Part shown: positions 2,915-24,497 of the stretch, piece by piece | Position numbering within the stretch: the stretch's first letter is position 1 | Layout of the letters: each line of letters starts with the position of its first letter | From: a virus | Lineage: Duplodnaviria; Caudoviricetes | DNA: 24,497 nucleotides | Strand: one strand, 5' to 3' | IMG/VR virus record: IMGVR_UViG_3300034118_001689 | Location: 1-24,497 of that record | Program-made: the position numbers and the translations under genes | The notes under the pieces: model-generated | What the model was told of the DNA's origin: nothing | Database searches by the model: none | The model's input: only the letters and a program-made list of their open reading frames with translations

Positions 2915-4984
2915 ATGGCTTGGAATTCATCCGAAAATAAATCACTGGACCAACAGCAGAAAAAATCTGCAATTGGTTATGGCGCTCCAGTCACATCAAA
3001 CCCTAGTTACACGGATAAGCCATACAGGGACTCGTGGGATATTGAGCGTGCATACCGAGAGGGTATGCAGAAAATCACTTGGGTGAACAGATGTATCGAT
3101 GCTATTGCAGGCAACCAAGCACGACTTCCAATCATTCTCAGAAAAGATAATTCAAAAGATGGTGAAGTCGTAGTTGGACGTGAGGCGAAGCGTTCATCAC
3201 TGCTTGAGTTACTCAACGTTAAATCCAATATTGGTGAAAACTCGTTTATTTTCCGATACAGACTTTCTGCTCAGTTGTTGCTTGGCACAAGAGGGGCATT
3301 CATTGAAAAAGTTCGCGGAAGAGATGGCGGTGTTATTGGCTTGAATCTCCTCCCCCCACAATCGACTGCCCCAATTCCATGCCCTCGCAAATTTGTTTCT
3401 GGGTACGAAGTGAACATGCCGTATGGCAAGAAAATAATAATGAAGCCAGAGGATGTTGTGTGGATTAGAAGACCGCACCCCCTTGACCCATACCTTTCTC
3501 TCACGCCTCTAGAGGCTTCTGGTGTTGCTATAGAGATTGAAAATTTGGCAAAGCTCTACAACAGAAACTATCTATTAAACGATGGAAGACCTGGTGGACT
3601 TCTTGTTGTTAGAGGCGAAATAGACGAGGACGATAAAGAAGAATTACGCAATAGATTCAGGGGCAATTTGGGCAAAACTGGTCATACAACAGTTATCGCC
3701 GCAGACGAAGGCGTTGACTTTGTTGATACATCAGCGAACCCACGAGATGCTGCATATATTCAAATGCGACAGATTACAAAAGAAGAAATTCTTGCAGCCT
3801 TTGGTGTTCCAGAATCAGTTATTGGAAATGCCTCCGGAAGAACGTTTAGCAACTCGGCAGAAGAAATTAGGGTGTTTTGGGTTGAGACAATGCTGCCTCA
3901 CCTTGAGCCGATAGCGCGAGCACTGGATGAGCTTGACGAGAAATATTACCTAGATTTTGACACAAGCGAAGTTCCAATCCTTTTGCTCTACAAGCAAGAG
4001 CGCGACAGATATTTGAAAGATGAGCTGTCCCAAGGTTTGATTTCTGTCAACGAATACAGACAGGCAAGTGGAAGAAAAGAAGTTGAAGCAGACCTTGCTG
4101 ATTCTCTGCTTATGAATCCAAACCTAATTCCAATTGCTAACACCAAAAAGAAGATGGAAGAGAATGCTGCACAGGTTCCCGGCGGAGCTCCAGGTATGCC
4201 CCCGGTTCCAGGTATGCCTCCAGTTCCTGGAATGCCGCCAGTCGAAGCTCCAGTACCACCACTTGACCCAAATACAATGCAGGGCGCAATGGCCGAAGTT
4301 GCTGCTGGCGGAACTGGGGATATGGCTCAAACAACGTTGCCACCAGAGGTCGCTGGTATGGCTCCTGCTACTGGAGCAGCGCCAATCCCGTCTGGTATGG
4401 CTAGCGAGTCTTCTGGCGGATTCCAGCACAAATCTGCTCAAAGCGATGAATTCGACAAATCTGAGATGGCAATAGAAAGATGGTCTGAAATTCTTTCAAG
4501 AGGTATTGAAAGAGTTGTTGAAAGACAGCAGCGCGTGGTCCTAGAGAAAGCAAGTAGCAGTAAGTCCAAGAAGGCCCTTATGTCGGGAACACTTGACCTT
4601 GATTCAATTTTCTCAATAGACACATGGAACAAGCAATTGGAAGACGACCTACGTCCTGTTATCTCTGCGATAGTCAATGACTCCTACGAGTTCAGAAAAG
4701 AGTCATACTCGCAGAAGGGATTGAAGCCAAGGGCGCTATCTCCAGCAATTGTCAAGAAGCACATTGATTCGCAAATATCCGAGATACTCACCATGAACTC
4801 TGGAATTCGTTCCTCAATGGAAGAAATGATGATGAAATCATTCTCGCATGTGGGAGAAGAACAGCGTTTCTCGGTTTTTAGAGAAGAGCTTGTTGGGATG
4901 TACGCAAATATCCTTGCAAAAGACCAGCTTGAGATATCTGAGTCAGAAGCAAAAAGAGCCTGGACATTCGGACAGGTTGCCTAG
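2915..4984 (+). CDS. HK97-family portal protein with Pro-rich linker and helical C-terminal extension
   Basis: Portal motifs WVNRCIDAIA, LLLGTRGAF, YLSLTPLEA, NDGRPGGLL, EEILAAFGVPESVIG and ISVNEYRQASG. About 290 extra residues follow the core. Confidence 0.93.
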   Translation: MAWNSSENKSLDQQQKKSAIGYGAPVTSNPSYTDKPYRDSWDIERAYREGMQKITWVNRCIDAIAGNQARLPIILRKDNSKDGEVVVGREAKRSSLLELLNVKSNIGENSFIFRYRLSAQLLLGTRGAFIEKVRGRDGGVIGLNLLPPQSTAPIPCPRKFVSGYEVNMPYGKKIIMKPEDVVWIRRPHPLDPYLSLTPLEASGVAIEIENLAKLYNRNYLLNDGRPGGLLVVRGEIDEDDKEELRNRFRGNLGKTGHTTVIAADEGVDFVDTSANPRDAAYIQMRQITKEEILAAFGVPESVIGNASGRTFSNSAEEIRVFWVETMLPHLEPIARALDELDEKYYLDFDTSEVPILLLYKQERDRYLKDELSQGLISVNEYRQASGRKEVEADLADSLLMNPNLIPIANTKKKMEENAAQVPGGAPGMPPVPGMPPVPGMPPVEAPVPPLDPNTMQGAMAEVAAGGTGDMAQTTLPPEVAGMAPATGAAPIPSGMASESSGGFQHKSAQSDEFDKSEMAIERWSEILSRGIERVVERQQRVVLEKASSSKSKKALMSGTLDLDSIFSIDTWNKQLEDDLRPVISAIVNDSYEFRKESYSQKGLKPRALSPAIVKKHIDSQISEILTMNSGIRSSMEEMMMKSFSHVGEEQRFSVFREELVGMYANILAKDQLEISESEAKRAWTFGQVA
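4190..4243 (+). repeat. Three imperfect 18-bp tandem repeats encoding (PGMPPV)3 in the portal linker
   Basis: ccaggtatgcccccggtt / ccaggtatgcctccagtt / cctggaatgccgccagtc. Confidence 0.9.
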
Positions 4985-5092
4985 TTTCACTAAACAATTT
5001 CTGTAAAAGATTTGATTTAGGCAAATACTTGCATTCTGTAGCTGTTTTCTCGTTTATTATCGACTAGCAACCGAGAGAAGTTGGTTTGGAAA

Positions 5093-8000
5093 ATGTCAAA
5101 AGAAACATTCGAGTATAAGACCACATCGGTATCAGGCTCCCAGCAGATTAAGGGTGCTGTAGGCCTGGATGAGATGCAGGGCATTGTCGAGTGTTTCGTT
5201 GCGGGAATTGGTAATAAAGACTCTGTTGGCGACGTTTGCGCCTCGGGGGCATTCACAAAGAGTCTTCTCCGCCGCAAACCGAGAGTTGTTTGGGGCCACA
5301 ACTGGAATGACCCAATCGGCAAAGTGCTTGAAATTTACGAAGTTGGCCCACAGGACCCACGCCTTCCAATGAAGATGAAAATCGCCGGAATTGGCGGTCT
5401 TTTTGCAAAAGTTCAATTCAATCTTCAGTCAGAAAAAGGCAAAGAAGCATTTGCAAACGTGGCCTTCTTTGGAGAAGAACAAGAGTGGTCAATCGGGTAC
5501 AAGACGCTAAGAGCTCAATTCGACCAGAAGTCACAAGCAAACATTCTTTACGAAGTTGAGCTTTATGAAGTAAGCCCTGTTCTGCATGGGGCAAACCAGT
5601 TAACTGGAACAATCTCGGTCAAGGGTGATGACTCATCGTACGGTAATCCTGTCATGGTGATGCCGGAGCAAGATGAGCGCAACGGGTACGAAGAGATGGA
5701 GAAGGAGCTGTCAAGACTTTTTAATGCCAAAGTCTCAGTTCATTCAATAGATGGCGATGAGGTCGTCTTCACCAGACACGAAATGTCCGGAGCGAAAAAG
5801 TACAAGTGTGGATTCATGAGAAATCATGGAAGATACATGTTCGGAACACCTGAGATGATTTCTGTTCCGCAGAATCCTCAGGCAGCTCCAATGCCAGTTG
5901 TTAGCGGTAGACCGACTCCACCAAATGAACCACAAAGAATTGTCAGACCACAGCAAATGCCATCCATACCTGTCGCTGTTAAGCCAGGCGACAATGGAGT
6001 TGTGATGATTCCACTCCCTTCAGTCCAATATGACGCTTCGCCAAAAATGAGCCTCGACAAAGAAGAAGCAGACCTGCGTGATGCTCTTCTTAAAATCGTT
6101 GCACGCCACGGAAAATTTAACGAGGATTCAAATGGAGTTTGGGCTGGCTACTACCCTCCTGCTGAAAATCCAGTTGCCAGAATTGGTGTCAAGTGCGCTA
6201 ATTGCGTGTTTTATAAAGGCGGGTCAAACTGCAAGATAATTGACATGCCTGTAGAACCAGAAGGCAAGTGCAGATTTGCTGTCATCCCGAATGGCGTTGT
6301 ATTGAGCAGTGGCTCAAAAGAACTTGAGGAACACGCTTCAGAAGCAGAAGATGCAATCATGGAAACGCTTGAGCTCAAGTATCCAGGGGAGTTTGTTCTC
6401 GGTGTGCTACGAAATGCCGTCGGCAAACGAAAGAAGAGAAGAAAGAAGTACAAGAATCTCGCCGAATTTGGCGACGAGGACGATATGGGCGAGAAGTCCT
6501 ACCTCATTCCTGTCGAAACAGATTTTGCATTTAGTGTAAAGACCGCACTAGACCCAGTATTCGATTACTACAGAGCAGAAACATTTGTTGACAAAGAGGG
6601 AATAGTAATAACCTCTGGAGTTACTGAAGATTTGATAGATGCAGTCGATACGGCTCTCTACAACTTAAAAAAAAAATTTCCAAATCATGAAATAGAGGGT
6701 AAATCCCTCGGCTACAGAATTGGCCGTTCGCTTGCATCAAGAGCAATTGATAGACCAAGCATTGGTGGCAAAAGGCGTGGTGGCCGTGGATTCGGCATGC
6801 CAGAGGGCGACCTGGACCCACGAACAAGAGTAGACAAAAACAGAGACGGAACACTCTTTGACAACATTCCTGGTTGGGAACAACCAGACCCAACACCAGA
6901 TGGTCCTGGCTCGATAAACAACCCAAAACTTTCTTCCGCACAAAGAAGAGACGTTGCCAGTATTCCTGGTGAAGGTGAAAAAACAAAACCAGCAGATGGT
7001 GAAATAATAAAGAGCCGTAAACCAAAGTACACGGCCGACGACCTTGGTGAAATTCTTGGAGAAAAGAAGAAGCCCGCGAAGAAGGCTGTAGCCAAAAAGG
7101 CTCCTGTTAAAAAAGAAAAAGTAAAACGAGGAGAACTAGATTTCGCTAAGGGTCCTAAAAAGGATAAGACGCCTTCACTTTCATCTGGTGAAAGCGACAA
7201 GAGACTCACTCGCCACTCGGGAGACCCAAAATTTGAATCACTTGTTTCTCCAGAAGAACTAGAGAAGCGCAAGAAATTCGAAGAAGTAATTAAAGACTGG
7301 AAAGATTCCGGTTATGGCTGGACAGATGTACCTAGGTATAAGCCAGATGCTTACAGGTCGCCTGACTATCTGCGCGGAAGAGAGATGGGTGTCAATCAAG
7401 CCAGGGTGATGTGGCTTGGAGATAAAACCAATCCAAGACCAGCCAAATTCGAAGATAAAAATACGTCTTCTGTTGCCTACAGGGATTGGTACTCAGGGAT
7501 GGTTATGCGTGCCGGCACCTTCCTTGATGCATCACGTGGTGATGACAACGAATTCTACAACGGCATGGAAGATGCAATACATGAATTCATGTACAACAAC
7601 AGACCTGATGCAACTGGGTTCAGGGGTATTGGCCCAGATGGGAAAGACGGTCTATCCGACTGGATGCGTCAATATGGTTTCGACTCATTATCGCCAACTC
7701 CATTAAGAAAGAAAAAAGAAGGAAAAAAGAGAAGTTCACTCTCCCTCTCTTCTGGCGCAGACGACGATACAAGACCAAATTTCGACGAAGAAAATTATGA
7801 GAGCGACACGAATGTAGATTTCTACGACACCATTCTTGACATGATGGGTCCAGAAGATGACCGACCAAAGGTTTCTTCTCGCAAGAAACAAATGAGCGAT
7901 GAAGAGATTTATCGCAAGAGAACGACAACTGGAGCTTCCCTGCAGGATGTTGCAGAAGAGCTCGGTCTGACGAGAATGGAAGTCAGAAAGCGCGAGCAGC

Positions 8001-11000
8001 GTCACATGCGCAAAATGCGTAAAGACAAAGAGGGCGTTTCGCTCTCTTCTGGTGCAAAGAACGAGTGGGCCACTTCGCGTGGGTATGAGCCTGACAGATT
8101 TGACCTTCGTGAGGCAACAAACCAAATAGGTCGCGGAAACATCATGGCCATCTCTGGCGGTCGTGTTGAGCGCAGAGGAAACGAGATGGTTCTTCCTTCA
8201 ACAAAGGACCAGCAAGTCGTTATCGGTTATAACTCCGTCCCAGACCTCTACTACGTCAGAGCTGAACAAAAAATCAATACAGGTAAAGACAAGGGCAAAA
8301 ACAGAATTCTTGCTCAGTGGGATGAAGTTTATGCTGACGAACTTGGCGAACTTGCATATCAAGCAAGTCTCAAGCCAGCAAATCTGAATAACGAGAACAA
8401 AGAGTACTGGAAGCTTGGTAAGGGAAATCAATTCGCTGACAGAATTGTTGACAGGAGAAACGGAAAACTTGTAGATAGAGATTCAGAGAACCTCCCATCT
8501 GCACCATCGAAAGACGAAACTCCTTCGCTGTCTTCTGGTGGACGGGGTCGTGATTATTACAACTACGACATTGAAACAAGCGACGATGGCAATAATCTTC
8601 TTGACCAAATCCACGATGCGTTAGAGGAAAATCCACTTATCAAGGATGACATCACTGCCGATATGGCGGACATGCTTGGTGGAGACGGGATAGTTGAAGC
8701 CAATGGTTTTGACACGCAAAAGGCTTTTAATCTTGTAACTGGAAGCGATGATGAGTTCCAGGACTACATGGACATCGTTGACGATGCAATGGACGCACTG
8801 GAAAACGGCTCTCTTGCAAAACACAAAGCAACAGTGCGTGATGCGAACGTAAGACTCGATTCAGCAAAGCCTGGAAGTAATGAAGCAGGGAAGCTTGAAG
8901 CACTTCGCGACAGGTCGTATGAGTGGATTGGTGACATCAACAAGTATTCACGTGTTTCTACAATTAAAGACAAGAAGAATATTGAAGCCAGTGACGTAGC
9001 AACACGAATGATTTCCAAGGAGCAAGACGCACTCTGGAACGCTCGTTCTGCAATAACAGAAAAATACATAGAAGATATCGCTTCTGCTAGAAAAGAATCT
9101 AAGCGTCGTGTTCCTATTGAGAAGATTGATTCTGATAGAAATACGGTTCCTGATTACGATTTGGCACTTTCTTCTGGAAGCGTCATGAAAGATGCTCCAT
9201 TATCGAAAACTCTTGCTTCAAAGAAGGACGGAATTACCTTATCTTCTGGTGAGTTGCAAGCTACCTACAATGAAATTGGGAAATCAATACTAGAAGCATT
9301 AATCGAGATGGACAAAAATCCAAATCAAACATATTGGGATGTGCCGTGGAGAACGCCAACTCTGTACGCAAGAAATCCAACTAGAAAAAATCGAATATAC
9401 CAGGGCATGAATCAAATACTCCTTGCCCATACCCATAGGAAGAATAATTACCGTGGAAACTTCTGGGCTGGAGAGTCACAATGGGCGAAATTTGGAGGGA
9501 AACCAAAAAAGGGAGAAGAACCTGTATCGATTCTCGTCCCAATAGAGGGAACAATTCCAAGGAAATACAAACTAGAAAAGGTATTGAACCTTGACCAAAT
9601 GGAAGGCCTTCCAGAAGCATACGTAACGAAACTTCTAGATGTTGGCAAAGAACGTCTTGACCCTGCGCTAAAAGTCAAGGACGCTGAGTCCGTCATAGAT
9701 GAACTAAAGCCAGTTATTAAATTTGGTGGAGATGAGGCATTCTTTTCTCCGAGCGGAGATTACATTCAGATGCCGCCTTATGAAATGTTCAAATCACCAG
9801 AGCAGTATTACGGAACGCTTTTTCATGAAGCAACTCACTGGACCGGAGGCTCTGCACGCATTAATAGGCAGACCATAAAAGACTATGCGAAAAACAAAAA
9901 GATTCGCGCAGCAGAAGAATTGATTGCAGAAATGGGCTCCTCATTTCTTCTTGCCGCTATTGGCATATCCCCGCAGGTTAGAACAGACCATGTTGTCTAT
10001 ATAAAAGGTTGGATTTCAAACCTTAAAGAAGACCCAGGTGCATTTATTAAGGCCCTACAACAGGCACAGTCGGCAGCTGACTACATTCTTGATAGGTCGC
10101 CAACATTGAGAAGACTTTCTGGCGTGCCGGAAGAACAACGCAAGGCAAAGCCACCGAAAACCATAATTAAGCCTGCTAAAGAAATAGCCGAAGAGGGTGT
10201 GTCTCTGTCTTCTGGCAGACTCCCAGAGCCTTGGCAGTTGCGCGATGATGTGCGATATTTCGGAGATGAATCTCAATATGGTTCTGGAGTAATTTCCAGA
10301 GACTCTAAGGGTCGGGTCCGCGATGCAGCAGGTGGTCTCTCGCTTTCAAGCGGAGCAAGCCGAGTAAAAAATCTTAAGACTGGAGAAGAAGTTCCAGCAT
10401 TGCTTGAAGACGATGAATCTTATGCTGAAAAGTTTCTCGGAGAAAAAGATTTTGAGCCAACTCAGCAGCAAAAAGCTGCAATCGATACGGCAATGCACAT
10501 GGTTGACAAGAAAAAGGGCAGCCTTGTCATAGGTGCCGGAGCCGGTTCTGGAAAAACTTCGACAATGAAGCAAATTGCAAAAGTGTTGAATAAAATTATT
10601 CCGGATGGAAAAATCTACTACACGGTATTCAACGCCGGAAACGCAAAAGACGGCAATAAAACAATGCCTAGGAATACTGGAGTTGCAACAACTAATCGAA
10701 TTGCCTATTGGTCACTCCTACTCGGTGGTGATACCGGAATATATGGTCAGGGAACAACAAAAAAGATGCAGTTAAGTGCAACAAAGAAATTTTCAAAAAG
10801 ACTTCCAGGCTCGCAAGCGGACAAGGTTATTAATGCAACTATGTTCGATGGTTCAGAGAAGCAATTCATTGGCAGAGAACCGGGATGGTCTGACCTCGGA
10901 TATATAGCGCCAGACTCAATAGAAGGTGTACAAAACATCTTGCTCCAACTCGATGCAGAAAAGAAACTTCCGTCAACAGTTTCAATCGATGACGAAAGCT

Positions 11001-14000
11001 CCAAACAACTGCATCGTGCATTAAAACATTATGCAATTACCGATATGGACTCTCCAACCGCTTTTCATTTTGGTCCGACAGTGTCAGAGTATGCTGCCGC
11101 CCTTTTGGCTGACCCTAATTTTGAGTTCGATGAGTCGGCGGTTGACAAGGACATGGTTGAAACTTTAAACCTAATTTGGGGAAAATTAATAGACCCTAAA
11201 TCAAATGTCGTACCAACACGGGATTTCCAAATAAAAATGTGGGCCCTCACGAAACCAGACCTTAGAACAGACCCTGGTCTTATCGGACACAGACCAGAAG
11301 TGGACAAGGTTGAGAGGGTGAGCGTAGGAACTGACCTCGATATTGATAGTGGAAAACTTGCAATTGGGAAAACGGTAACTGGAATCGTGGATAAGCAGGA
11401 AGTAACTGGCGTAATCCTGTCTTTGCAAAAATCAACAAGACGTTCTGCCGATGGTACATATAAAGTAACTGCAAAATTATCTGTCTCCAACTCAGATAAC
11501 GACAGACCATTCGACATATTCATGTTTGACGAGGCTCAAGACATGAACGACGTAATGGCAAAAGTCCTTACGGATAATGCTTTAAATATGCCAATAATTA
11601 TGGTCGGAGATTCCAGGCAGGCAATCTACGCCTTCCGAGGCTCTATCGATGGTCTGTCAAAACAAGATGCAACATACAGAATTCCATTGACGCAGTCTTT
11701 TAGGTATGGCTCAAACATACAACACCTTGCAAATATTGTCCTTATGAGAGAAAACCTTTCGGATGTCGAATGGCACGATTTGATGGTGGCCCAGGGAGTT
11801 GAGCCAGGATTTACTCCGGTCTATCATCATGTTAAGGGTTCTGCTCAGGATGTTGTTCGTGAGACGCTCAAAATAACAGACGACAATGGCAAGAGACTTC
11901 CTAAAAAAGAACTAAATAAAAAATTGTCATTTATAGAAAAAACTCTCACCTTGGACAATTCTGCTGTAAGTTTCAGCGGGCTGTCATCCACAGAAGTAGA
12001 CGAACTCTTAGATGAACTGAGGGCCGAACATGTTAACTCTGCCATGGGTGAAATCGTCGAAAACATGACTAATCCGGATGCAATCATCAACTCCACAAAT
12101 AGGGGTGTTTATGAAGAGGCGATGGGCGTTATCAGAAGAGGTATAGAGAGTCACCAGATGGCATACCTTGAGCTGGTAGTACAGCTAGACGGTGCATCAA
12201 AACAAAATCTTCCACGCATATATAGAGAGATTTCTGAAAGATATAGGCTGAATGGGAAAAGCGTAAATCTTTTAGACGAGAATCTTACTGATGATGAAAG
12301 AAATACAATCATCGAAGAATTAATTGAAGAACATGCTCCTGGCGGAGAAGATGGAATGGTCCCAGCAATAGGAATCCCGGCAGATACTCATAAGAAAATG
12401 ATGGATTTCTACACCCAGCTTGACTGGATAGAGAATAATAAAGACACTTTTGGCAAAGATGGAAGGCCCCCGGTTTCGGATAAACTCCAGGGCATCTGGG
12501 ATAAAGTTGGTGGTGTTGACCCAAGCCCTGAAGAGATAAGAAGACGGCTGCAAAGAAAAGTTCAAGACGACGCGGAAACGGGAACGCTCTACAGACTCGC
12601 TCATCCGACAAAAGTTGACCCAGCGCAACATATTGGCGCCAGGGGAATGTTGGCATACCTCAAACCGGACGGACAAAGTTATACGACTAACGGCGGTGAA
12701 GTTAAGAGGTATCAAGCATTAAAACCAATTAGGGAAGGTCTCAGCATTCCAGCAATGGAAGTTACTGGAGATAACGTCACCGTTGAAAAATTATTGGCTC
12801 ATGCCAAGCTTCCGCCTAAGTCAGTTAGTCGCGGCAGACAATCAAAAATGGGACACATAATACAACCGCAAAGCGAATCGATACAACAAGGAGAGGTATT
12901 CCTAAAGCTCCAGTTGGACGATGACGATAATTGGACCGGAGCCGTTATGGTCGGTGGGGTTGGCGCGCATGGTGGAAAATATGAATATAGGTCGTGGATG
13001 AATGGAATACTTCCAGGAGGTGGGAGAGGTGGTCCAGTTGGGTGGGGAACCATTCGAACCGCAACTAACACGCAAAATGTTCAGCCAAATTATCACGGTG
13101 ATATTGAAAAAGCAGTAAAAAAACTAAAGAAAAAATACCCGAACGCAACAATTTCATTTGAGATGGAGCAACAACAGGCCGATGGAAAGTCTGCTCAATT
13201 CCCAGTTAATACTGACGTAGATGCACCAGTGACCTTGGATGGCAAAGGTAATCCAAACCTTGATACGCCTCGAATCAAATTCCCAGCTTGGATAGTAAAG
13301 GGAAGAGATGACGAGGAAACGGCACAAATAGTCAATGCGCTTGGTGACATGGTGAGAGAGTCTGCAAAAGGCGGAGACACCGATGTCGACGTAATGACGA
13401 CCCACATATCAAAAGGAAGGGAATATGCAAACGTCCAGGCTGGAGAAGACTTTTCAGACCCAGACACCATGGTCCCAATATTAAGTGAAGAACAAAGAGA
13501 AAAAATATCAAAACTCCCTAATGGCTTGAAGATAATTAGAGCGCTTGAGATAAACAGAAGGCAAGAAGAAAATAAAGTCTACATTTTGCTAACACGTGCA
13601 ATGAGAAGACTTGACCCAGGCAGAGCAATATCTAAATACTATTTTAGTGACACAAAAGAAGATGGGACTCCTAACACAAGAACCATAAATTCAAAGGCGG
13701 CAATAAAAAATGACGTTATTGTCGACGGCAAAAAAATATACGAAGACTTGCAGATACCTGAAGGATTTAGGGCTCCATATGAGACAAGTCCAGAGCAAGC
13801 CGAAATTGACGAAAGAGAAAGAGCAGCAGTAGAAAAAAAACTTGACGACTCAATGGTCGCATTTACTAAAAAGATGAAAGAACGTCTCGATGCCGAAGAA
13901 GCAGAAGCAAAAAGAAAAGCTGAAGAAAGAAAGAAATCAGGGAAGAAAGACGGTCCGATTGCGGAAGATGAAGAAGAAGAAGAAGACTCCGATGAGCCAG

Positions 14001-15961: not shown

Positions 15962-16012
15962 AATAAAAACCGGACTACATTTTTACTGAAACCACTCAAT
16001 ACTGCTAATCCA

Positions 16013-16092
16013 TTGCAGGGGCTCGTGGTAGGTTATAATTTAGACCATTAACAAATGGTAGATGTCCCTAGGGATATTTGCCTGCAAATCTC
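16013..16092 (+). promoter_or_regulatory. Candidate promoter (TATAAT at 16034-16039) followed by three adjacent inverted repeats
   Basis: Perfect -10 hexamer in the intergenic gap; TTGCAG at 16013 is only 15 nt upstream, so the -35 is uncertain. Inverted repeats: ACCATT-N4-AATGGT (16044-16059), ATGTCCCTAGGGATAT (16062-16077) and ATTTGC-CT-GCAAAT (16076-16089). Confidence 0.5.
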
Positions 16093-16101
16093 AGGAGTCA
16101 T

Positions 16102-17751
16102 ATGAGCTACGACGAAAAGGCCAATGTAAGCATCGATGCTGATGGAAACGTGCTGAAGTGTGCCAAGGGTGCCGCCCCCACTGAATGTGGATTTGTCAAG
16201 GGTGCGGAGCTGTGTGCAAAGTGCGGAGCAACGCCATTGCAGATGAAAATGGTACCAGTCGAAGAGATGGTTGAAGAAGACATGGTCGACGCAGAGGTCG
16301 GAATGTCAAAGAAAAAGAAGAAGAAAATGATTTCTCTCCCAGATGCCGAGGGCATGGAAGAAGAAGAGGACGAAGAGGACGAGGAAGAAATTCCGGAAGA
16401 CGCCATCGGTGTAACCAAGCCAGATTTGAAGAAGCCAAGCGAAAAAGGAATGAATGCACAAGTTGGTGCAATCATGGAAGAAGAGTACGGCGACGAAGAA
16501 GACGACGAAGAAGAAGATGAAGAGGACGAAGAAGAAATGTCCTCCATGAAGATGTACGAAGAAGATGACATGTCAGAAGAGGAGCTGGAAAAAGCTTTGA
16601 ACTACATGAGAAATCGACGCATGACAAAAGCATCCATGGACGAAGATGGCGAGATGCTCGAAGAAGAAGTGGACATGGAAGAAGACGACATGTCCGAAGA
16701 TGAAGTAATGAAGGCTTTGACTTGGGCCCTCAAAAAGAAGCGCACAATGGCGGAAAAAGGATTGGATTCAGATGAGGAATTCAGTGATGACTTGGATGAA
16801 AAAATCCTATTTGATGCCTCCGACGAGGATTGGAATACGCTTAGAGAAGAAAGAATTAGCTCTCTTGGAATCAAGTCGGAAGAAATTGGTGTAGACGGTT
16901 TTGTCTGCGCACTTGACAGAAAAGCTCATCCAGCAGGAATGTCAGTATGCGACGACTGCCCAGGTGGATGCGTTGCAGAAAAGGGCCTACCTGGATTACT
17001 CCACGTTGAGGGTCTTGCAGAAAAAGCATTTGATGGATTTGTTGTTGACTCTGGCTACTCGTCAGATGCAGACATGTTTGTCATTGATGTTCAGACCAAA
17101 GACGGTGCAGTTAAGGAAGTTTTCATTGACGGAACAACTGCCGAGATTATGGGATTCCATAAGCTCGAGTCAGAAGAGTTTGAACAAAAGTCAGACTATA
17201 CAAACGTAAAACTCATTGATTTCACTGAAGCAGCTGAGATTGCAGTCAAGTCAATCGACGGGCTAGTCGTCGCAGTTGAGCCAGACGTTTTCGAAGGTTT
17301 TGATTCATACGCAGTTGAAATTGAAGGTGTTGACGGAAAGTCGTACGACGTGTTCGTTGCTCTGGATGGCGAGATTCTTGGATACGACAAGTACGAGCCA
17401 GAAGAAGCAGAAGAAATCGAAGCAGAAGCTGCCGAAATCGCACTGAAGAGAGCATTCAGCGATGAGCAGAGAGATTCAATGGCAAAAGAAGGCTCTGCGA
17501 TGTCAGATGGTTCTTATCCAATTGCTTCAGAAAACGATTTGCGCAATGCGATACAAGCATTTGGTAGAGCAAAGGATAAAGAAAAGACAAAGCGTCACAT
17601 AATGAAGAGAGCACGTGAGCTAAAGTTGGAGAGTCTTATCCCTGCAAATTGGCTCGCAGGAAGCAAGGAAAAGAGTGACGAGGTTGTAAATGATGCAGAT
17701 TTCATGGCGGCCCTTGTTGAATTCCAGCTCCTCGAAGACAATATCGACTAA
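16102..17751 (+). CDS. Acidic head-associated protein with two Cys4 clusters, tandem PepSY-like domains and a C-terminal helical domain
   Basis: ATG 16102 is preceded by AGGAG (the ORF track starts at TTG 16078). Contains CAKG...ECG...CAKCG, long D/E tracts, CALDRK...VCDDCPGGC, two PepSY-like repeats (about 16990-17160 and 17215-17390) and C-terminal GSYPIASENDLRNAIQAFGRA...IPANW. Confidence 0.8.
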   Translation: MSYDEKANVSIDADGNVLKCAKGAAPTECGFVKGAELCAKCGATPLQMKMVPVEEMVEEDMVDAEVGMSKKKKKKMISLPDAEGMEEEEDEEDEEEIPEDAIGVTKPDLKKPSEKGMNAQVGAIMEEEYGDEEDDEEEDEEDEEEMSSMKMYEEDDMSEEELEKALNYMRNRRMTKASMDEDGEMLEEEVDMEEDDMSEDEVMKALTWALKKKRTMAEKGLDSDEEFSDDLDEKILFDASDEDWNTLREERISSLGIKSEEIGVDGFVCALDRKAHPAGMSVCDDCPGGCVAEKGLPGLLHVEGLAEKAFDGFVVDSGYSSDADMFVIDVQTKDGAVKEVFIDGTTAEIMGFHKLESEEFEQKSDYTNVKLIDFTEAAEIAVKSIDGLVVAVEPDVFEGFDSYAVEIEGVDGKSYDVFVALDGEILGYDKYEPEEAEEIEAEAAEIALKRAFSDEQRDSMAKEGSAMSDGSYPIASENDLRNAIQAFGRAKDKEKTKRHIMKRARELKLESLIPANWLAGSKEKSDEVVNDADFMAALVEFQLLEDNID

Positions 17752-17771
17752 TAGCATCATGGATACCCGTT

Positions 17772-20700
17772 ATGACGGGTGATACAAATAAGACGCGAGT
17801 AATCGTTTCTCAACGATTGATATCGCCTTTATCGTGCTGCAATAATTTCAACTCCAAAGCGATTGAGTTCCGCGCGTCGGTAACCAAGTCTTTATCAATG
17901 TCGCGCCTTGATGCGGACATTGCCGTCAAGGCAGCAATGGGGGCTAAGCCGACATATCAGGACACCGACAACAAGAAGCGGGAATTTACTGGAACAACAA
18001 AACCTGGGGTAGAAGAAATCGCACCAGGGATGAGAGTGGAGACCAATAAGGCTTGGGAAGAAGGAAGAAGTCTAGTTCTTTATCCAAGTTGGAAATCAAA
18101 GCGTTCAATGAATCTTGATGCCAACTTTGGATGGATTGAGGGTAAGCAAGATACCGATTTTGAGACAGCTCAGAAAAAAAGAAAAGAAAAACCACAGCTT
18201 CAATTTACAAAATATGATGTGAACCCAAAGACTGGTGATGTCATTCCTGGTTCAGAAACACAAATTGATATGGCCTACCCACGGCTCGGTTTGTCTAGGG
18301 CGCAAAGACGCAAACAGAACAAAAACGTTAATAATCCGCAAATGCAATTCAAAGCAGGGTTACCTGGACGCTCTCTTGAATCACGTATACCGGGTGGGAA
18401 TCTTCTTGCTAGGGCAGCCGGGAGATTTGGCATAGCAAGAGACGCAAACAATAAGTTTAGGTGTCCACCAGGAACTCCTGCTGCAAACCAATTTACCGAC
18501 CATCTTGGTTCTAATTGTTTTGGCGTAAGTATGGAGAGGGCGGCAAAATTTCTTGCTGACAAAATAAATCAATTAATGACTTTCGACAGTCAACAATTAG
18601 CCCTGTCTTCCGGTGCAAAAGAAACATGGAGAGAAAGATTGCGCATGAGACGCGGCGGCGCAATGCCTGGAAGAAGTCCATCATACGATATGGAAACTGG
18701 GGAGAGAATACCAACAACCCCAGCAGAAATAGTAGATGTTCCAGGGAGAATGAGATGGTTTAAAAATGCAACAGTAAACGCACAAAGGAACCTTGCTCGC
18801 TCTGAGTCTCTCGTTCAGAGACTTGAATCAAGAACAGGAGTTCGTGATTTCACCCCAAAAGATAGAGAAATTAATAATGATAGATACGAGTTGCTATCTC
18901 GATTAAAAAATATGGGTATTTGGGACATAGATATAAAAGGAAGACTTTCAGAGGAGCAGGTCGATGAATTCATTCAGTCACGACTTGAATTAATACCAGA
19001 ATGGGATTCTTTAACTCCAGAAGAAAAAATAGCACTATTCACGGCAGACAAAAAAAGATATTACGAGACAGAGCGGGCAATGCTTGATTCACTGCTTGAG
19101 CAGTTCGTAATTAGACCAGAACATATGAGGACTGTCGGAAAAGTTGAATTCTTTCAAGACCCAATAGATGATGATAACTCAGAAGCGACAACAACGTGGG
19201 ACGTGAAATCGGAAGGCGCAGGAATAAAGTCGGTCATAAAAGTAAATATTGAGCAAATTATGACCAACCAAGAAGGTGAAGACGGGATACCTGGCATGTC
19301 ACCACGTGAGAGATTAGTTATTTCTGCTATTGGTGGAAGGACTGACGCAGAAGCAATGGCTAAAGTCGCTGACTTCCTGATTAATACAGAATACACGGCA
19401 AGAGGAATGGCTGGTCTTATTGATGGGCCGCGTTCTTTCGCTCGTCATATTATGTTGCATGAAATTGCACATACAATTCAGGGAGAAGCATTTTTAAAAT
19501 CAATTAAACAACAGATAGATGCACATGGTTATGTTGATGTTCCAGTTTATGATTATAAAAAGGGTAGATTTACTGGTGAGATAAAGCAGGTTTCTGATAT
19601 CAGAAAACTAACCGGAGGCGACCTTTCGGTGCTCGTTGTTGGTTCTCAAGACGACATAAACTTAACATCCCTCGAAGATGCAATGTCAAAAATAGAGAAT
19701 GTCGCATTTCTTGCTGGAAGCTACCCTAATGTTTCAAGAAGCGATGGCAGGATGGAAGTTTATGCACTTGAATCCACAGCTGAACTTTGGGGTCTCAGGG
19801 AAGAGGGTTTAATATTTGGGGACGATATAGATGATGCTCTGAGCTTCATGGACGATGCTGTCGGCGCAAAAGCAGCTGAAGCCAGAGCCATAACAGACCT
19901 AGAAATGCTCGAGAGGCTCGAGGAGTCGTACTTCTCTCCACTTGAAAGAGGTGAAGACGTACTGCCAATACGAAAGCATCTTCGCGCTCCAATTGAATTA
20001 GATAAAAAAGCAATTGCAGCAAAAAGAGAAGAACGTGTACTAGGTGAGTTTAAAAAGAGCATCAAGGACCTGAACCAAGAGCAGCTTGCTATAACTCTTG
20101 CCGATGTAATTGAGTTTGTAGATATGGCTGAGAGTAAGAGGAAAGAGCTTTATAGAAGTTTATCCAAAATTGAAGACTCACCGTACGATGCGGCCGAGGG
20201 TGCTTATGACGACTTGCTTGAACAGGTTGAGAAACTAGAAGAATTAATAACACTTAATAAGAAAGCACAAAAGATTGCTATTGACAAAAACACATCTTTC
20301 AATACTGATGGTAAAAAAGCATCAGACAAAGAGATATTGGATATGGCCAGGGAGATTATAAAAGGTAGAGACCCTGTTACCCCAGAAGAGGCAGCTAGAA
20401 GACTGAGCGCTGAAAGGACAGACGCGCTAAGAGCTGAAGCCGGTGCGCTTAGCGATGAGTTATTAGTTAAAAAAATAGCTGATTATGACCTTTTAGCTTC
20501 ATCTCTTAAGCCGGATAGCGATGACTACATACGTAATAGTGCTGATAGAGAAATATTCGTTCAACAGTACATAGCTAATAAACGTGCATCTGGTGACACA
20601 AGAACCCCTAGTGTTATAAAAAATGAACTAAGAGCGAGCATAACTAAAGAAATAACCGCATCTCGAGATGCCGTTGACGGTGCAAAACGCGGCAAACTTA

Positions 20701-23700
20701 AGCCTCAGAAGATGAAGAGCAAAGAGCACATTTCTGCAAATGCAAAAAAAGAACGCGCCAAGCACAGAAGAAATATAACTAAACAACAGTTTGAAGCCGT
20801 AAAAGAAATAGACGACTTCAACGTCGCTGACATAACCCAGGTTCTTGACCCGAATAAGCAATTGGTAGTTGGAAGAGCCATAAACAAGAGAAATGCTCGT
20901 CTAAAGAGGCTTGGGCTTGATTCGGACCCATCATCAATTGATGAGGGCTCACTTGACGAGCAGGTGGAGAATATTCTCATTCCTGCCATGGAGGCAATGG
21001 ATGCATCAAGCATAACCACGCCATTTGAAATGGAAATGTTTATTGATTCGTCGAAGGTGGCGCGAGTCAAGCCAGGAAAAGAAATAGACCTTGATACTTT
21101 TGGTCAAGGCAAGGTTCTTTCACGCTCCATGAAGGCTGGAAAACCAGAAAAAGGAACAAAGAAAAAACGAGTGATAGTTCGCATGCAAGAGGGCGACAGG
21201 GGATTGTTCCCACTTGCCAAAAAAGGCGAAGACCAGAACTTCGTAATACCGCCAGGGAAACTTCGTGTTGTTGGTAGGGATAAAGATGGAAGCCTAATCC
21301 TTGAAGTTTCCTTACAGAAAGACACCGTTGACGTACTCGACGACTTGTCAAAGTCAATCGGCGATGGACCAGATGATGCAATCTGGCGTAAAGGCGCCAA
21401 GAGAAAGATTCAGGCGGTCGCCGACAGATACGCAGTAAGAAGAAAAGATGATGCCGCTGGGACAAAATCCGATGATGCAGCAAAGATTACAGAAACAAGC
21501 GAATCTATTGTTTCTGAGGTGTCTGAATTGGGTGGAGAATTTGGAGAAACATTCTCAGAAAGCCTTTCATCTGGAGCGCGGGAAACAACAGAATCTCTCA
21601 GAACTAAGCGTCAAGAAAGATTCAAGTCTGTACTTGGGGAAGTTAACTCACGTCCAGAACCGCTGCTATCTTCGATGTCAGCTCTCAGGCAGGAAAATGA
21701 GATAGTTCACCGCCGGGTGGAGGAAATACTAAATACTGAATCATTTGAGCAGATAAATGAAAGAATAGAAAACGCTGCACTGAAGCTTCACTCCGGATTT
21801 GATAGACGGGTTCGCGTAAGAATGAAAGAGAACGATATAGAAGAGTTCTCGAAGTCTGGAAAGGTTCGTGCCCTTGGTCTCTCCTCTGGCGCCGTTGGCG
21901 GTGACGGAGAAACGAGACGAACAGGAAGATTGTCAAGAAGGGTAGAAGAATTCAAAAACATAACAGAACAGAAGGTTGCCGCAGTTGGAGCAACGGAAGA
22001 ATTCAAGAAACTTAGAGGAGCTGGTCTTGGCAATGGTGGTTTAGATAGGCTCAACGACGAGACGCTCAAGCGAGAGCACGGACTAGAGCGCTCCGGACAA
22101 AAAAGCGTTCTTTCTGACAATCCGATATATAGAACAGATTCGGCAGAACAGGCAATCGCATTGCTCGCCCTTGGCTATGAAGTTGAAGTGATAGATGATG
22201 GCGAGAGGAAAATGGTTAAAAATGCCGCCATCCAGACAGAGGAAGAGCTGAAGAAGTTCGCCGTAGAAGAAGCCAAAAGGCTTGGAATCCCGGATTCAGA
22301 TACAGACAGATTCGTAAATGCCTTCATAGAAACACATGACATTGATTTGTGTGCTCTTTATAACGCAAATACAAATGTCTTTTGCAGCGAACATCTTGAT
22401 GTCAGGCGTGAGCACATGCCACAGAGCGAAGGTGCAGCGCAAAATGCAAATTCACCAGCTTTAAGGGCTCTAGTTTCTGGGCATGTAGAGGGGAAGTATT
22501 CCCCTAAATCTGGATTGTCAGACGAAGACACCAATCGATATAAAGAAATAACAAAAAAACTTGGAAATCCAGCAAAGTTCTCCGAAGTTTCAGAAGAAGA
22601 TAAACAGTGGGCATTCAGCAATACCGACTGGAGTAAAGTCGAGCCCAACACTGCTCCAGAGTTGATGCAATTCTTAAAGAATGTTCTCGGCGGAGAGGGG
22701 TCTGTGGTTAGAAAGTCCAAAAGCCCAGATTTGCTTAAAGCATCACAGAAACAGCTCAGAAATTCACAAATTGACAAACAAGCTCAGAACATCCTCGATG
22801 AATACAATGCAGCACGAAAGACATGGGGCGTAGAGGGAAGCCCAGAATTTAATGAAAAACGTGCCGAGTTCTTAAAACAGGCATGGTTTCAGTTACCAAT
22901 ACTTGTATCGGATGATGGTTATGTTGTAGACGGTCACCACAGGTGGGCTGCTATAAAAATGTTTAACGACCATGTACCAGAAGCAGAAAGAATAGAAGTT
23001 CAGGTCAATGAACTGCAAAAAAATATCTTCGAATCAATTATATTGGCAAAAGTATTTCAAGAGCATATGGAGATAAAGGGAAAGACTGTTGGGAAAGTCA
23101 AGCCTTTTGTGGATGGCGAAACAAACCCAATGTCAAAAGCTGAGTTTGACGAACATATTCAAAAAGCACAAGACTCAGTGCAAGAGCTGGCAAAAAAAAT
23201 TAAGGATGATGGGTTATACCCATTCACCGTACAGGGGGTTATACCGGAAGAAGAGCGCTCTCCTGGCCTAAAAGCCAACAGAGACAGGTCTGTTAAAGAG
23301 TACGGAATGACATGGAAGCCTGAATACTCGAAAGTAAAATCAGTTGAGGAATCAAAGAAATGGGACGGCTGGGATGGTGTTGAGGTAACCGAAGTTGACC
23401 TGTCATCAGACATTCTTCCTACAGAATCACACCTGAAGGGCGAGTCGATTGACAAAGTTGTTTCTGGTGGTGAGCCTCTTAGAGAGGGGTACTTCGTAAA
23501 CCTAGTTATTGACCAAGACGGAAAAATGTACGTTTCCGACGGTCACAATAGGGTGGCAATGAATAGAGCTCTTGGAAACGAGAAGATTCAGGCGCGTGTC
23601 GTTGACCTTAGAAGAGTAGAAGCTCCATGGGGTGAGCAGAGTTCTGGAAAAACAACATACAAGGGATACGACTTGGTCGAACCTTCCAACCCGTTGCCAA

Positions 23701-24497
23701 AACCTGGAGAATATGCTGAAGATATTGTTGTTGCAGCGACTGCCCAACGAGCAAAAGTTGAGACAGTAGAAAAAGAGATTACCTCAACACTTATAGACCT
23801 TTCAGAAAAACATGGCTCGGTAATGATAGGCCTTGCTGCAAGATTGAAAAATATTAAATCACTATCAAGAAAAATTAATGATGAACGTGGAAATAGAACC
23901 GCGGAAGAAACAGCAGCGGATATGTCTGACGTAGTCAGATACACAATGACATATACCCCAGAAAATTATGTATCTGGTACAAAGGCCGTAGTCGCCGACC
24001 TGGAAGCTGCCGGATACAAGCTTAAGGTTAAAAACTACTGGGAAGCTGGAGACGCATATCAAGGAATAAACGTTGCAGCCGTTCATCCAGACGGAACAAG
24101 GTTTGAGTTACAATTCCACACACCGCAGTCGGCTTTCAAAAAAGAAGCCGTACATGAGATTCTTGATGACTACAGACTTGAAAAAGACCCTGTAGAACGT
24201 TGGATTCTTTACGACAAAATGGTCAAAATGTCTGCGAGTATTGATATTCCCGTTGAAGATGGGCTTCTTGATATCGGTGAAGCCAGGTCACAGGACTTTT
24301 CGTTGGCCCTATCCTCTGGAGCGACCGCAAAAAGAAACAAAATAAACAGGCGTGGTCCTATTGATAGGTTTATTTTAGAAAAAAATAAAAAGGGTGATGA
24401 AGTAAGAAATATAAAATTAGGAACAAGCTCAATAAGTAATCCAGAGAAAATAGATAATGCCGAGTACCTAAAGATTGTTGGTGATATCCCTGGCGTC
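17772..24497 (+). CDS. Second giant polyvalent protein (at least 2242 aa, 3' end outside the window): zincin, ART-like fold, two ParB/Srx domains and a RelA/SpoT synthetase
   Basis: Manual translation MTGDTNKTRVIVSQRLISPLSCCNNF...KIVGDIPGV found no stop codon up to the window end, which is probably why it is absent from the ORF track. Contains 4 LSSG motifs. Confidence 0.88.
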   Translation, partial: MTGDTNKTRVIVSQRLISPLSCCNNFNSKAIEFRASVTKSLSMSRLDADIAVKAAMGAKPTYQDTDNKKREFTGTTKPGVEEIAPGMRVETNKAWEEGRSLVLYPSWKSKRSMNLDANFGWIEGKQDTDFETAQKKRKEKPQLQFTKYDVNPKTGDVIPGSETQIDMAYPRLGLSRAQRRKQNKNVNNPQMQFKAGLPGRSLESRIPGGNLLARAAGRFGIARDANNKFRCPPGTPAANQFTDHLGSNCFGVSMERAAKFLADKINQLMTFDSQQLALSSGAKETWRERLRMRRGGAMPGRSPSYDMETGERIPTTPAEIVDVPGRMRWFKNATVNAQRNLARSESLVQRLESRTGVRDFTPKDREINNDRYELLSRLKNMGIWDIDIKGRLSEEQVDEFIQSRLELIPEWDSLTPEEKIALFTADKKRYYETERAMLDSLLEQFVIRPEHMRTVGKVEFFQDPIDDDNSEATTTWDVKSEGAGIKSVIKVNIEQIMTNQEGEDGIPGMSPRERLVISAIGGRTDAEAMAKVADFLINTEYTARGMAGLIDGPRSFARHIMLHEIAHTIQGEAFLKSIKQQIDAHGYVDVPVYDYKKGRFTGEIKQVSDIRKLTGGDLSVLVVGSQDDINLTSLEDAMSKIENVAFLAGSYPNVSRSDGRMEVYALESTAELWGLREEGLIFGDDIDDALSFMDDAVGAKAAEARAITDLEMLERLEESYFSPLERGEDVLPIRKHLRAPIELDKKAIAAKREERVLGEFKKSIKDLNQEQLAITLADVIEFVDMAESKRKELYRSLSKIEDSPYDAAEGAYDDLLEQVEKLEELITLNKKAQKIAIDKNTSFNTDGKKASDKEILDMAREIIKGRDPVTPEEAARRLSAERTDALRAEAGALSDELLVKKIADYDLLASSLKPDSDDYIRNSADREIFVQQYIANKRASGDTRTPSVIKNELRASITKEITASRDAVDGAKRGKLKPQKMKSKEHISANAKKERAKHRRNITKQQFEAVKEIDDFNVADITQVLDPNKQLVVGRAINKRNARLKRLGLDSDPSSIDEGSLDEQVENILIPAMEAMDASSITTPFEMEMFIDSSKVARVKPGKEIDLDTFGQGKVLSRSMKAGKPEKGTKKKRVIVRMQEGDRGLFPLAKKGEDQNFVIPPGKLRVVGRDKDGSLILEVSLQKDTVDVLDDLSKSIGDGPDDAIWRKGAKRKIQAVADRYAVRRKDDAAGTKSDDAAKITETSESIVSEVSELGGEFGETFSESLSSGARETTESLRTKRQERFKSVLGEVNSRPEPLLSSMSALRQENEIVHRRVEEILNTESFEQINERIENAALKLHSGFDRRVRVRMKENDIEEFSKSGKVRALGLSSGAVGGDGETRRTGRLSRRVEEFKNITEQKVAAVGATEEFKKLRGAGLGNGGLDRLNDETLKREHGLERSGQKSVLSDNPIYRTDSAEQAIALLALGYEVEVIDDGERKMVKNAAIQTEEELKKFAVEEAKRLGIPDSDTDRFVNAFIETHDIDLCALYNANTNVFCSEHLDVRREHMPQSEGAAQNANSPALRALVSGHVEGKYSPKSGLSDEDTNRYKEITKKLGNPAKFSEVSEEDKQWAFSNTDWSKVEPNTAPELMQFLKNVLGGEGSVVRKSKSPDLLKASQKQLRNSQIDKQAQNILDEYNAARKTWGVEGSPEFNEKRAEFLKQAWFQLPILVSDDGYVVDGHHRWAAIKMFNDHVPEAERIEVQVNELQKNIFESIILAKVFQEHMEIKGKTVGKVKPFVDGETNPMSKAEFDEHIQKAQDSVQELAKKIKDDGLYPFTVQGVIPEEERSPGLKANRDRSVKEYGMTWKPEYSKVKSVEESKKWDGWDGVEVTEVDLSSDILPTESHLKGESIDKVVSGGEPLREGYFVNLVIDQDGKMYVSDGHNRVAMNRALGNEKIQARVVDLRRVEAPWGEQSSGKTTYKGYDLVEPSNPLPKPGEYAEDIVVAATAQRAKVETVEKEITSTLIDLSEKHGSVMIGLAARLKNIKSLSRKINDERGNRTAEETAADMSDVVRYTMTYTPENYVSGTKAVVADLEAAGYKLKVKNYWEAGDAYQGINVAAVHPDGTRFELQFHTPQSAFKKEAVHEILDDYRLEKDPVERWILYDKMVKMSASIDIPVEDGLLDIGEARSQDFSLALSSGATAKRNKINRRGPIDRFILEKNKKGDEVRNIKLGTSSISNPEKIDNAEYLKIVGDIPGV
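19200..19800 (+). other. Zincin-like metallopeptidase domain
   Basis: HIMLHEIAHTIQG (HExxH at 19458-19472) and downstream YALESTAELW (E-x-x-A-E third-ligand motif). Boundaries are approximate. Confidence 0.7.
20770..21320 (+). other. Probably degenerate VIP2/C3-like ADP-ribosyltransferase fold
   Basis: C-terminal pattern VIVRMQEGDRGLFP...GEDQNFVIPPGKLRVVG resembles the ART segment I-x-V-P-x-G-x-x-G...E-x-E-x-L-L-P-x-G. The catalytic R, STS and ExE residues are not evident. Confidence 0.4.
22730..23010 (+). other. ParB/Sulfiredoxin-like domain 1
   Basis: LKASQKQL...PILVSDDGYVVDGHHRWAA (DGHHR at 22929-22943). Confidence 0.8.
23380..23610 (+). other. ParB/Sulfiredoxin-like domain 2
   Basis: ILPTESHL...LVIDQDGKMYVSDGHNRVAMNRALGNEKIQARVVDL (DGHNR at 23538-23552). 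Confidence 0.75.
23740..24255 (+). other. RelA/SpoT-type small alarmone synthetase / nucleotidyltransferase domain
   Basis: All four synthetase motifs in order: RLKNIKSLSRK (23841), SDVVRY (Asp at 23928), KNYW...YQGIN (24057) and FELQFHT (Glu at 24105). Confidence 0.88.

Follow-up and report, generated by a model that had tools for sequence, protein, structure and literature searches.

A recurrent LSSG tag bounds shuffled modules in giant phage proteins and is a candidate protease site

The window considered here is the whole 24,497-nucleotide stretch formed by IMG/VR virus record IMGVR_UViG_3300034118_001689 (Duplodnaviria; Caudoviricetes; G000 in our genome set). The greater part of it is taken up by two open reading frames (ORFs) for very large proteins, giants A and B, in which the tetrapeptide LSSG recurs between predicted enzyme modules. 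An initial annotation made from the letters alone had proposed that this tag is a cleavage site, or a loading or ejection signal, of a polyprotein system delivering effectors from the virion. The two giants, their tag sites and the modules between them are given below with lengths in amino acids (aa); the fractions give the relatives that carry the motif at each position.

5081..15961 (start TTG 5081 or ATG 5093), + strand: giant A, 3,626 aa, with prohead protease, scaffold-like region, leader and cargo modules
6302..6313, + strand: LSSG site 1, in the scaffold-like region (1/24)
7178..7189, + strand: LSSG site 2, after the leader (8/19 alignable relatives)
7745..7756, + strand: LSSG site 3 (4/11), in coil with a predicted local distance difference test score (pLDDT) below 50
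7925..8023, + strand: Sigma70_r4-type helix-turn-helix (HTH) in a 99-aa module, by profile match, folded in the model
8042..8053, + strand: LSSG site 4 (6/11)
8528..8539, + strand: LSSG site 5 (4/6)
9167..9178, + strand: LSSG site 6 (15/20)
9239..9250, + strand: LSSG site 7, start of the ArdC module (19/21)
9263..10054, + strand: ArdC-N and MPTase-PolyVal zincin (HEATH), Pfam E 2e-11 and 3e-35, folded between sites 7 and 8
10205..10216, + strand: LSSG site 8 (5/19)
10343..10354, + strand: LSSG site 9, start of the helicase module (20/22)
10349..14074, + strand: UvrD-like superfamily 1 helicase module, 1,244 aa, by profile matches
14075..14086, + strand: LSSG site 10 (11/15)
14237..14248, + strand: variant LASG, site 11 (11/16)
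14297..14308, + strand: LSSG site 12 (6/17)
14303..15958, + strand: conserved 552-aa module of no known family; mid-chain, not terminal, in L054
17772..24497, + strand: giant B, cut by the window end; the near-identical full-length P0001 has 2,903 aa with 5 LSSG and 1 LASG
18603..18614, + strand: LSSG site 13 (18/42), pLDDT below 50 but close to the model end
19458..19472, + strand: HEIAH motif of the zincin in the core of giant B, a candidate cutter; H, E, H, a downstream Tyr and two Glu invariant in 43/43 aligned
20691..21320, + strand: predicted ADP-ribosyltransferase (ART)-fold domain of VIP2/C3 type, Foldseek E 3e-4; VIA Z 14.2, root-mean-square deviation 3.0 over 161 aa to 8za7_B
21564..21575, + strand: LSSG site 14 (24/42), internal coil, pLDDT below 50
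21879..21890, + strand: LSSG site 15 (15/40)
22851..23012, + strand: weak ParB-like nuclease stretch, Pfam ParBc_2 E 5e-5, PHROG E 3e-5
23697..24300, + strand: domain with profile matches to phrog_2859, phrog_7625 and the XopAD C-terminal region
24309..24320, + strand: LSSG site 16 (8/12)

All 16 sites reported by the initial annotation are in frame, with eleven LSSG and one LASG in giant A and four LSSG in giant B; P0001, identical to giant B over B residues 280-1270, has two more beyond those in the window. The excess over chance is as strong as had been supposed: the 15 exact copies in 5,868 aa compare with 0.16 expected from composition (Poisson P ~1e-24), and the most frequent 4-mer of any kind in 2,000 shuffles of giants A and B reached no more than 5 copies. 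The claim that conservation is at the level of the protein and not of a DNA repeat likewise stands, as the 15 exact sites are encoded by 15 different 12-mers that include AGC/AGT Ser codons; hence, selection acts on the peptide. Identical codons, mostly TCT, are mildly over-represented in the window (p=0.0085) and in one of five relatives (G003, p=0.0005), with no excess in the four other genomes. The motif was also said to bracket domains cleanly. The piece lengths of 99, 322, 1244 and 810 aa are right, the HTH, ArdC-N with MPTase and helicase each fall within one piece, and no LSSG lies inside any recognised domain, but a 987-aa piece of giant B holds the zincin, helical bundles and the ART-fold domain with no motif between them. 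The further reading of the 810-aa piece as ParB-ParB-RelA/SpoT is retained in part: one ParB-like match is present but weak (E ~5e-5), no second ParB was detected, and the domain at the C-terminus (23697..24300) might be RelA/SpoT-like.

Relatives were fetched by means of the protease domain, and the best 80 of 597 loci yielded 25 dereplicated protease-led ORFs including that of the window. The motif is kept in these homologues, LSSG being their top over-represented 4-mer (140 copies against 1.7 expected), with positional conservation ranging from site 9 at 10343, the highest (20/22), to the lineage-restricted site 1 at 6302 (1/24). Five records rated as complete (151-170 kb) were read in tiles, their other ORFs being called mechanically, and here exact LSSG is found 30 times in 15,962 aa of giant A (1.88 per 1,000 aa), 14 times in 12,274 aa of giant B (1.14), 35 times in 13,129 aa of a third giant, C (2.67), and 4 times in 6,506 aa of the tape measure protein (0.61). 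The three giants together thus have 79 copies in 41,365 aa, and all other ORFs have 6 in 201,148 aa (0.03), which bears out the rarity outside polyproteins that had been foreseen.

The expectation that enrichment would be limited to head-locus proteins failed, since giant C and the tape measure carry the tag too; the code is accordingly not confined to that locus. The gene for giant C is 30-40 kb distant from those of the head, and its product opens with a leader of ~90 aa that is homologous to A residues ~527-618. All 13 genomes examined for this part of the tape measure have a site in its Gly/Pro linker, around residue 570-650, and G006, whose S78 protease is 100% identical to that of the window, has two window-type sites in this linker. 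A second tape-measure site near residue 40 is frequent: [LF][SA]SG is seen at residue ~36-42 in L104, L116, L121, L141, L143, L144, L156 and L165, and is absent in the window's own lineage (G001, G006, G009). The giants reach 4,564 aa (C of G032, L159:96-13787, 14 sites, with some module families in repeated copies) and ~4,900 aa (A of G014, L045 with L137).

A relaxation of single positions shows what the tag tolerates. Over 303 sites the pattern is [L91/F9]-[S90/A10]-S-G, with enrichment for F (and some V, I and M) at the first position and A at the second. Neither of the two last positions shows any such enrichment, and Ser occupies the third in all enriched variants (Ala 2 times, with 4.3 expected). 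The residue before Leu differs by lineage, being Ser/Ala in that of the window, Arg in G014/G015/G021, Lys in G018 and Gly in G024, and in G032 Phe replaces Leu in 4/4 sites of giant A, 3/3 of B, 9/14 of C and both mid-protein sites of the tape measure. These variants co-vary genome-wide across giants A, B and C and the tape measure. When the two-residue variant of B, C and the tape measure was compared with giant A of the same genome in 16 genomes, with G001, G008, G009, G015 and G025 excluded because they nearly duplicate lineages already included, the match was 0.469 against 0.244 permuted (0/20,000 permutations as high). The tape measure alone gave 0.441 against 0.18 (p=0.0006, 10 genomes) and giant C alone p=0.02 (8 genomes).

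The tag is, moreover, a protein-level junction signal bounding modules that are shuffled between chains. Homology blocks among C giants start at a median of 10 aa from a motif, against 104 for random positions (n=188), the order of their roughly dozen recurring module families is permuted, and modules exchanged between B and C begin no more than a few residues away from a motif; compared with the window, G001 contains one more module, KTSC-like and 85 aa long, that is inserted between two motifs. In G004 a module that ends giant B elsewhere is a separate 505-aa ORF (L114:11891-13405), which suggests that modules are able to work as free proteins. The proposed location in flexible linkers is likewise supported: compared with background, the sequences flanking the 303 sites are less hydrophobic and have a stronger tendency to disorder, and in two fold models 10/10 sites are low-confidence coil (pLDDT below 50), with the HTH and ArdC folded between sites. 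The A model has a mean pLDDT of 51, and a 162-aa module left unfolded in it probably reflects a shallow alignment.

A second motif, hydrophobic-[EQ]-x-K-[SAT], and a run of adenines come into play at the N-terminal part of giant A and in its neighbours.

2915..4984, + strand: portal protein, without LSSG; Lys-type motif FQHK-S (4430) after a Pro/Gly linker
5183..5611, + strand: Peptidase_S78 / HK97-type prohead protease domain with His (WGHNW) and Ser (EWSIG) motifs, 79-100% identity among 80 loci
5621..5623, + strand: Lys of TIS[VI]K ending the protease domain, in 25/25 dereplicated relatives; predicted self-release site
6667..6676, + strand: A10 tract (N-L-K-K-K) at the scaffold/cargo junction, predicted slippage/frameshift site; stops 4-5 codons on in both shifted frames
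6701..6703, + strand: Lys541 of IEGK-SLG, Lys-type motif ahead of the leader, putatively cleaved
6704..6934, + strand: Arg-rich leader with a DxDxDG-like motif, blastp E 4e-22 to the N-terminus of G001 giant C; predicted capsid-loading role
18351..18353, + strand: Lys194 of MQFK-AGL, Lys-type motif ahead of the B leader, putatively cleaved

The Lys-type motif recurs at residue ~101 of the capsid protein, in the linker of the portal and immediately ahead of the leaders of giants A, B and C; the related TIS[VI]K closes the S78 domain. At the capsid position [IV]K-[ST] is present in 12/12 capsid proteins seen, and [LFMI][SA]SG is absent from the capsid proteins of the five complete genomes. Per 1,000 aa the Lys motif occurs 2.5 times in the first 600 aa of giant A, at 0.07, 0.30 and 0.04 in the cargo of A, B and C, respectively, and at ~0.33 in whole proteomes. 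The Lys motifs stay constant while the LSSG variant changes between lineages, and the S78 domain, which matches Peptidase_S78 and TIGR01543 and conserves its His and Ser motifs in 25/25, is almost unchanged between the S, R, K, G and F lineages. We infer that the S78 protease would read the Lys code, with the cargo apparently built to survive it.

As to the adenine run, A10 is present in 21 of the 25 dereplicated ORFs, A9 in one (L040, where the cargo is in the -1 frame), T7-8 in two (L069 and L044) and neither in one (L054). Stops lie 0-5 codons on in both shifted frames in all 21 A10 ORFs, and KKK encoded elsewhere is all-AAA in 2/60 cases; the run is thus conserved in the way of an A-run slippage site. 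Runs of 9 A or T have been reported to make transcription slip, adding up to 6 nucleotides (PMC5009743, as far as the parts consulted go). One contig in each of two RNA runs has an insertion at the tract, of +6 A and +10 A, and four DNA runs and one doubtful RNA run have none; these variants are a hint only, as both RNA runs are poly(A)-selected and come from one study of a slightly different strain at a depth of 5-9. The RNA runs X18-X20 contain small parts of the region and have no bearing on expression level. The tract likely yields a short and a long product, to judge from the coding sequence and its shifted frames.

What, then, might read the tag? Its small residues and invariant S-G, placed in flexible linkers, would fit a protease site, and we consider cleavage at LSSG by one enzyme or another to be quite probable from the sequence pattern. 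We lean, more guardedly, towards the view that LSSG would be recognised by a second phage protease, distinct from that of the head, and that this protease would split chains likely packaged in the virion into separate enzymes. If the S78 protease reads the Lys code and the cargo is poor in Lys motifs, then LSSG would be read by another enzyme at another time. The following course of events may be envisaged. Slippage at A10 would give a short protease-scaffold of ~535 aa and a full-length cargo-bearing form. Giants A, B and C would enter the prohead via their N-terminal parts, where the S78 protease would trim at Lys motifs and spare the Lys-motif-poor cargo, and a second protease would later cut x-[LF]-[SA]-S-G. 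Given such a second protease, cutting on or after ejection, when cargo and tape measure would share a compartment, is modestly favoured over an earlier stage because the Lys code is avoided in the cargo and the tag is also found in the tape measure. The full two-code, two-stage programme, in which a slippage-set ratio, Lys trimming and a co-packaged zincin cutting the LSSG code after ejection are joined to co-evolution of code and cutter and to freely swappable modules, is unlikely to hold in every part.

The best placed of the other explanations, still a rather improbable one, is that the S78 protease itself cuts LSSG, besides or instead of the Lys motif, inside the prohead, as do T4 gp21 and SPN3US gp245 at their sites. 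Its fusion to giant A would suit this role, L-x-S-G resembles the hydrophobic-x-small-small sites of herpes assemblins, and site 6302 falls where several relatives carry a Lys motif. Prohead proteases are moreover described, in the parts of the account consulted, as cutting at a short motif, A-X-E in SPN3US, in numerous head and ejection proteins (PMC10052503). However, the capsid and portal lack a conserved LSSG and have the invariant Lys motif instead, so that the tag does not behave as their maturation motif; the S78 domain hardly changes as the tag does; and the tape measure, assembled outside the head, has a site that co-varies (13 genomes), placing carriers of the tag beyond the head. 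The prohead protease as the cutter, which the initial annotation had offered, is therefore weakened.

Less probable still is a non-proteolytic grip, with LSSG as a docking point for a factor that loads, unfolds or threads the chains during packaging or ejection. All the carriers are predicted to traverse the tail, the motif is at module starts in exposed linkers, co-variation requires a single reader that might be a protease or something else, and the N4 virion RNA polymerase has a zincin and is packaged uncut according to the sections of PMC5512222 covered. Yet one large residue with an invariant S-G offers little binding surface, and the spacing is irregular (20-1,244 aa) and tracks functional modules instead of length. 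Ranking below the grip, a host enzyme might read the tag after ejection, either as a protease or as a modifier of the invariant Ser. The Ser fixed at the third position would fit a modified or nucleophilic side chain, cargo and tape measure would meet in the host cell, and a title cited in bioRxiv 2022.09.20.507954, of which parts were consulted, points to a part played by the host in cleaving a T5 tail protein. On the other side, the variant shifts between phage lineages across four genes at once, for which a phage-encoded reader is simpler, and the clade has several conserved peptidases. Finally, a DNA-level recombination scar or micro-homology for cassette swaps, with no protein-level reader, would agree with the shuffling at the motif and the mild codon excess, but is very improbable in view of the distinct 12-mers with both Ser codon families, the four of six genomes without excess, and a Leu-to-Phe change that extends to the tape measure gene 20 kb off on the opposite strand; an origin of the tag as a DNA repeat or by gene conversion was rejected on codon diversity.

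Several points weigh against a second phage protease acting on packaged chains. The packaging of A, B and C in the virion is deduced from gene context and leaders, and the assignment of the Lys code draws on the behaviour of HK97-type proteases, which cut after Lys. The Lys enrichment in the N-terminal part of giant A is partly circular because the motif was defined by eye from N-terminal sites. No substitutions tracking the motif variant were evident by eye in either S78 or the B zincin. Site 6302 lies in the scaffold region, where 6/22 relatives have VVK-G, and would fit cutting inside the prohead or chance. The co-variation p-values overstate independence because the genomes are related, and R-type sites dominate the permutation set. 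Among C-C alignment sides, 85 of 208 cross a motif against a random expectation of 147; thus, neighbouring modules are often inherited together. The fold models are a weak test of linkers, 52% of the A model having pLDDT below 50 and 2/3 of the B sites being near model ends, and the 20-54 aa pieces between tandem sites have no evident use.

If a second phage protease is nonetheless accepted, the zincin in the core of every giant B is the preferred candidate from its sequence, with a chance somewhat short of even, and the remainder is shared by three further candidates: the zincin of giant C, an HslV-like peptidase and a vWA-linked metallopeptidase. The B zincin weakly resembles the Peptidase_M90/ATLF clusters; a PDB sequence-profile search with it gave no significant match, and fold searches with the B model were dominated by the ART fold and helical bundles. 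A second zincin module is found in most C giants and has a weak local match to lethal factor among PDB profiles (E 0.006). Thermolysin-type enzymes prefer to cut before Leu/Phe, and by analogy a zincin would most plausibly cut the tag there. The ArdC zincin, which had also been put forward, was rejected as a required cutter: giant A of L069 retains 8 LSSG sites with neither ArdC nor HExxH in that ORF, the other giants of the lineage being partly seen.

The HslV-family peptidase (phrog_1040) is present in 6/6 records that are at least 90% complete and absent from 22 fragments and three F-type fragments. It is a stand-alone HslV/proteasome-beta-like protein starting Met-Thr-Thr (L110:6552-7181 in G004, with orthologues in G001-G003, G005 and G017), and its gene is near whiB in G004 and in DSL-LC01; no function for a stand-alone phage peptidase of this kind was found in the literature searched. 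Its presence does not imply the code, because DSL-LC01 has a 47%-identical homologue alongside a motif-free giant of 3,289 aa; it is retained as a minor candidate. That head-locus giant (L179:7800-17669) is without an LSSG-type repeat. The HExxH protein with a vWA-type DxSxS motif (L110:15591-17426 in G004) has homologues in 5/5 complete genomes, and vWA-HExxH fusions have been proposed to process structural proteins in jumbo phages (PMC7824862, in the parts consulted).

Literature searches, which covered few subscription papers, gave no description of an LSSG junction motif, in agreement with the initial annotation's sense that the tag was new. The nearest known system is that of polyvalent proteins. 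Giants A and B have such disparate domains (S78, HTH, ArdC-N, MPTase and a UvrD-like helicase in A; zincin, ART fold and ParB-like in B), the hub domains are recognised at Pfam E 2e-11 (ArdcN) and E 3e-35 (MPTase-PolyVal), and the gene context is that of virion genes, giant A following terminase and portal with a capsid gene downstream in relatives. In the sections covered of Iyer et al. 2017 (PMC5512222), polyvalent proteins similarly chain ArdC-N with MPTase, helicase, ART-fold, ParB-like, GNAT and exonuclease modules in head-gene contexts, and zincin autoproteolysis is proposed for them, including after injection. Processing has thus been proposed before; no site is given in those sections. 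They mention no shared cleavage motif, no co-evolving tag that also marks the tape measure, no second Lys code and no slippage site, and assemblin-like peptidases are always C-terminal in that set, whereas S78 is N-terminal here (PMC5512222).

Other comparisons are less close. T4 gp21 and phiKZ/SPN3US gp175/gp245 share a short motif across virion proteins, short propeptides before cargo and a self-releasing protease, and the S78 catalytic motifs are intact here; in the parts of the account consulted, of 14 cuts that were mapped, 13 take N-terminal propeptides off head proteins, while the present tag is internal, with up to 14 copies per chain between enzyme modules, occurs in a tail protein and is distinct from the capsid/portal motif (PMC10052503). 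The tape measures T5 pb2 and lambda gpH are likewise cut at a defined site in tail morphogenesis with separation of a functional C-terminal part, though as single sites without a head-cargo link in the parts consulted, unlike a co-evolving tag common to head polyproteins in a contractile-tailed phage (bioRxiv 2022.09.20.507954). Tail sheath, tube and tape measure are annotated in G004, as expected of a contractile tail. Polyproteins of positive-strand RNA viruses and African swine fever virus combine a long ORF, a repeated short motif and a viral protease, with frameshift-set ratios of short to long products. The window has a repeated motif at module borders in flexible linkers as well, but the proteins and hosts are unrelated, modules here are shuffled between genes and the cutter is only a candidate. 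Thermus dnaX has a run of at least 9 A in coding sequence, mRNAs with extra nucleotides and a truncated next to a full-length product in the parts of that account consulted; the run here would instead govern, in a head gene of a phage, how much protease-scaffold is made relative to the cargo-bearing protease (PMC5009743).

With the tag, the processing of polyvalent proteins can be put to a direct test using a reporter peptide and the four candidate enzymes named. It also parses thousands of unannotated residues into natural functional units, which offer a set of candidates for the early enzymes of anti-defence and host takeover in abundant freshwater actinophages. Were a phage enzyme to read it, this would be a new sequence-specific protease with natural specificity variants; leader and tag together would show how many proteins might be loaded into a capsid and released via one signal; and under the two-code programme some 20-35 host-takeover modules would be released from three giant chains. 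As for hosts, a WhiB homologue is encoded in 5/5 complete genomes, which indicates actinobacteria by the criterion of Kavagutti et al. (PMC6802176, as far as consulted), and 17 runs of lake-water metagenomes hold at least half of the window's sequence words, 11 of these runs being possible sources. No cultured model was found, as gp48 (L176:1-13638, 4,545 aa seen) and gp52 of Streptomyces phage Gilgamesh are without an LSSG-type motif and the region examined of Gordonia phage Chidiebere has no giant.

Two further genes of the window may be noted.

1343..2656, - strand: large terminase subunit, without LSSG
16078..17751, + strand: acidic 557-aa head-locus protein, without LSSG; Lys-type motifs present

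The terminase is transcribed away from the portal, and downstream of it on the minus strand are a Rad52/Erf-like single-strand annealing gene and an unknown gene (87-791 and 820-1311). The 552-aa module that ends giant A (14303-15958) has no match in Pfam, PHROGs or NCBIfam and no usable match in the ESM Atlas; it is kept in most giants A, with 45-79% identity in the complete genomes. The protein at 16078-17751 is very acidic, with Cys clusters and a repeated C-terminal domain, lacks a family match and is found in all five complete genomes; it is possibly a scaffold or core protein. Lastly, a Cys-Pro-x-Gly...[Q/R]F-T-D motif in the B leader (18462-18530), possibly one that binds the capsid, is found again in a conserved head-locus protein of ~670 aa (L088:9375-11366).

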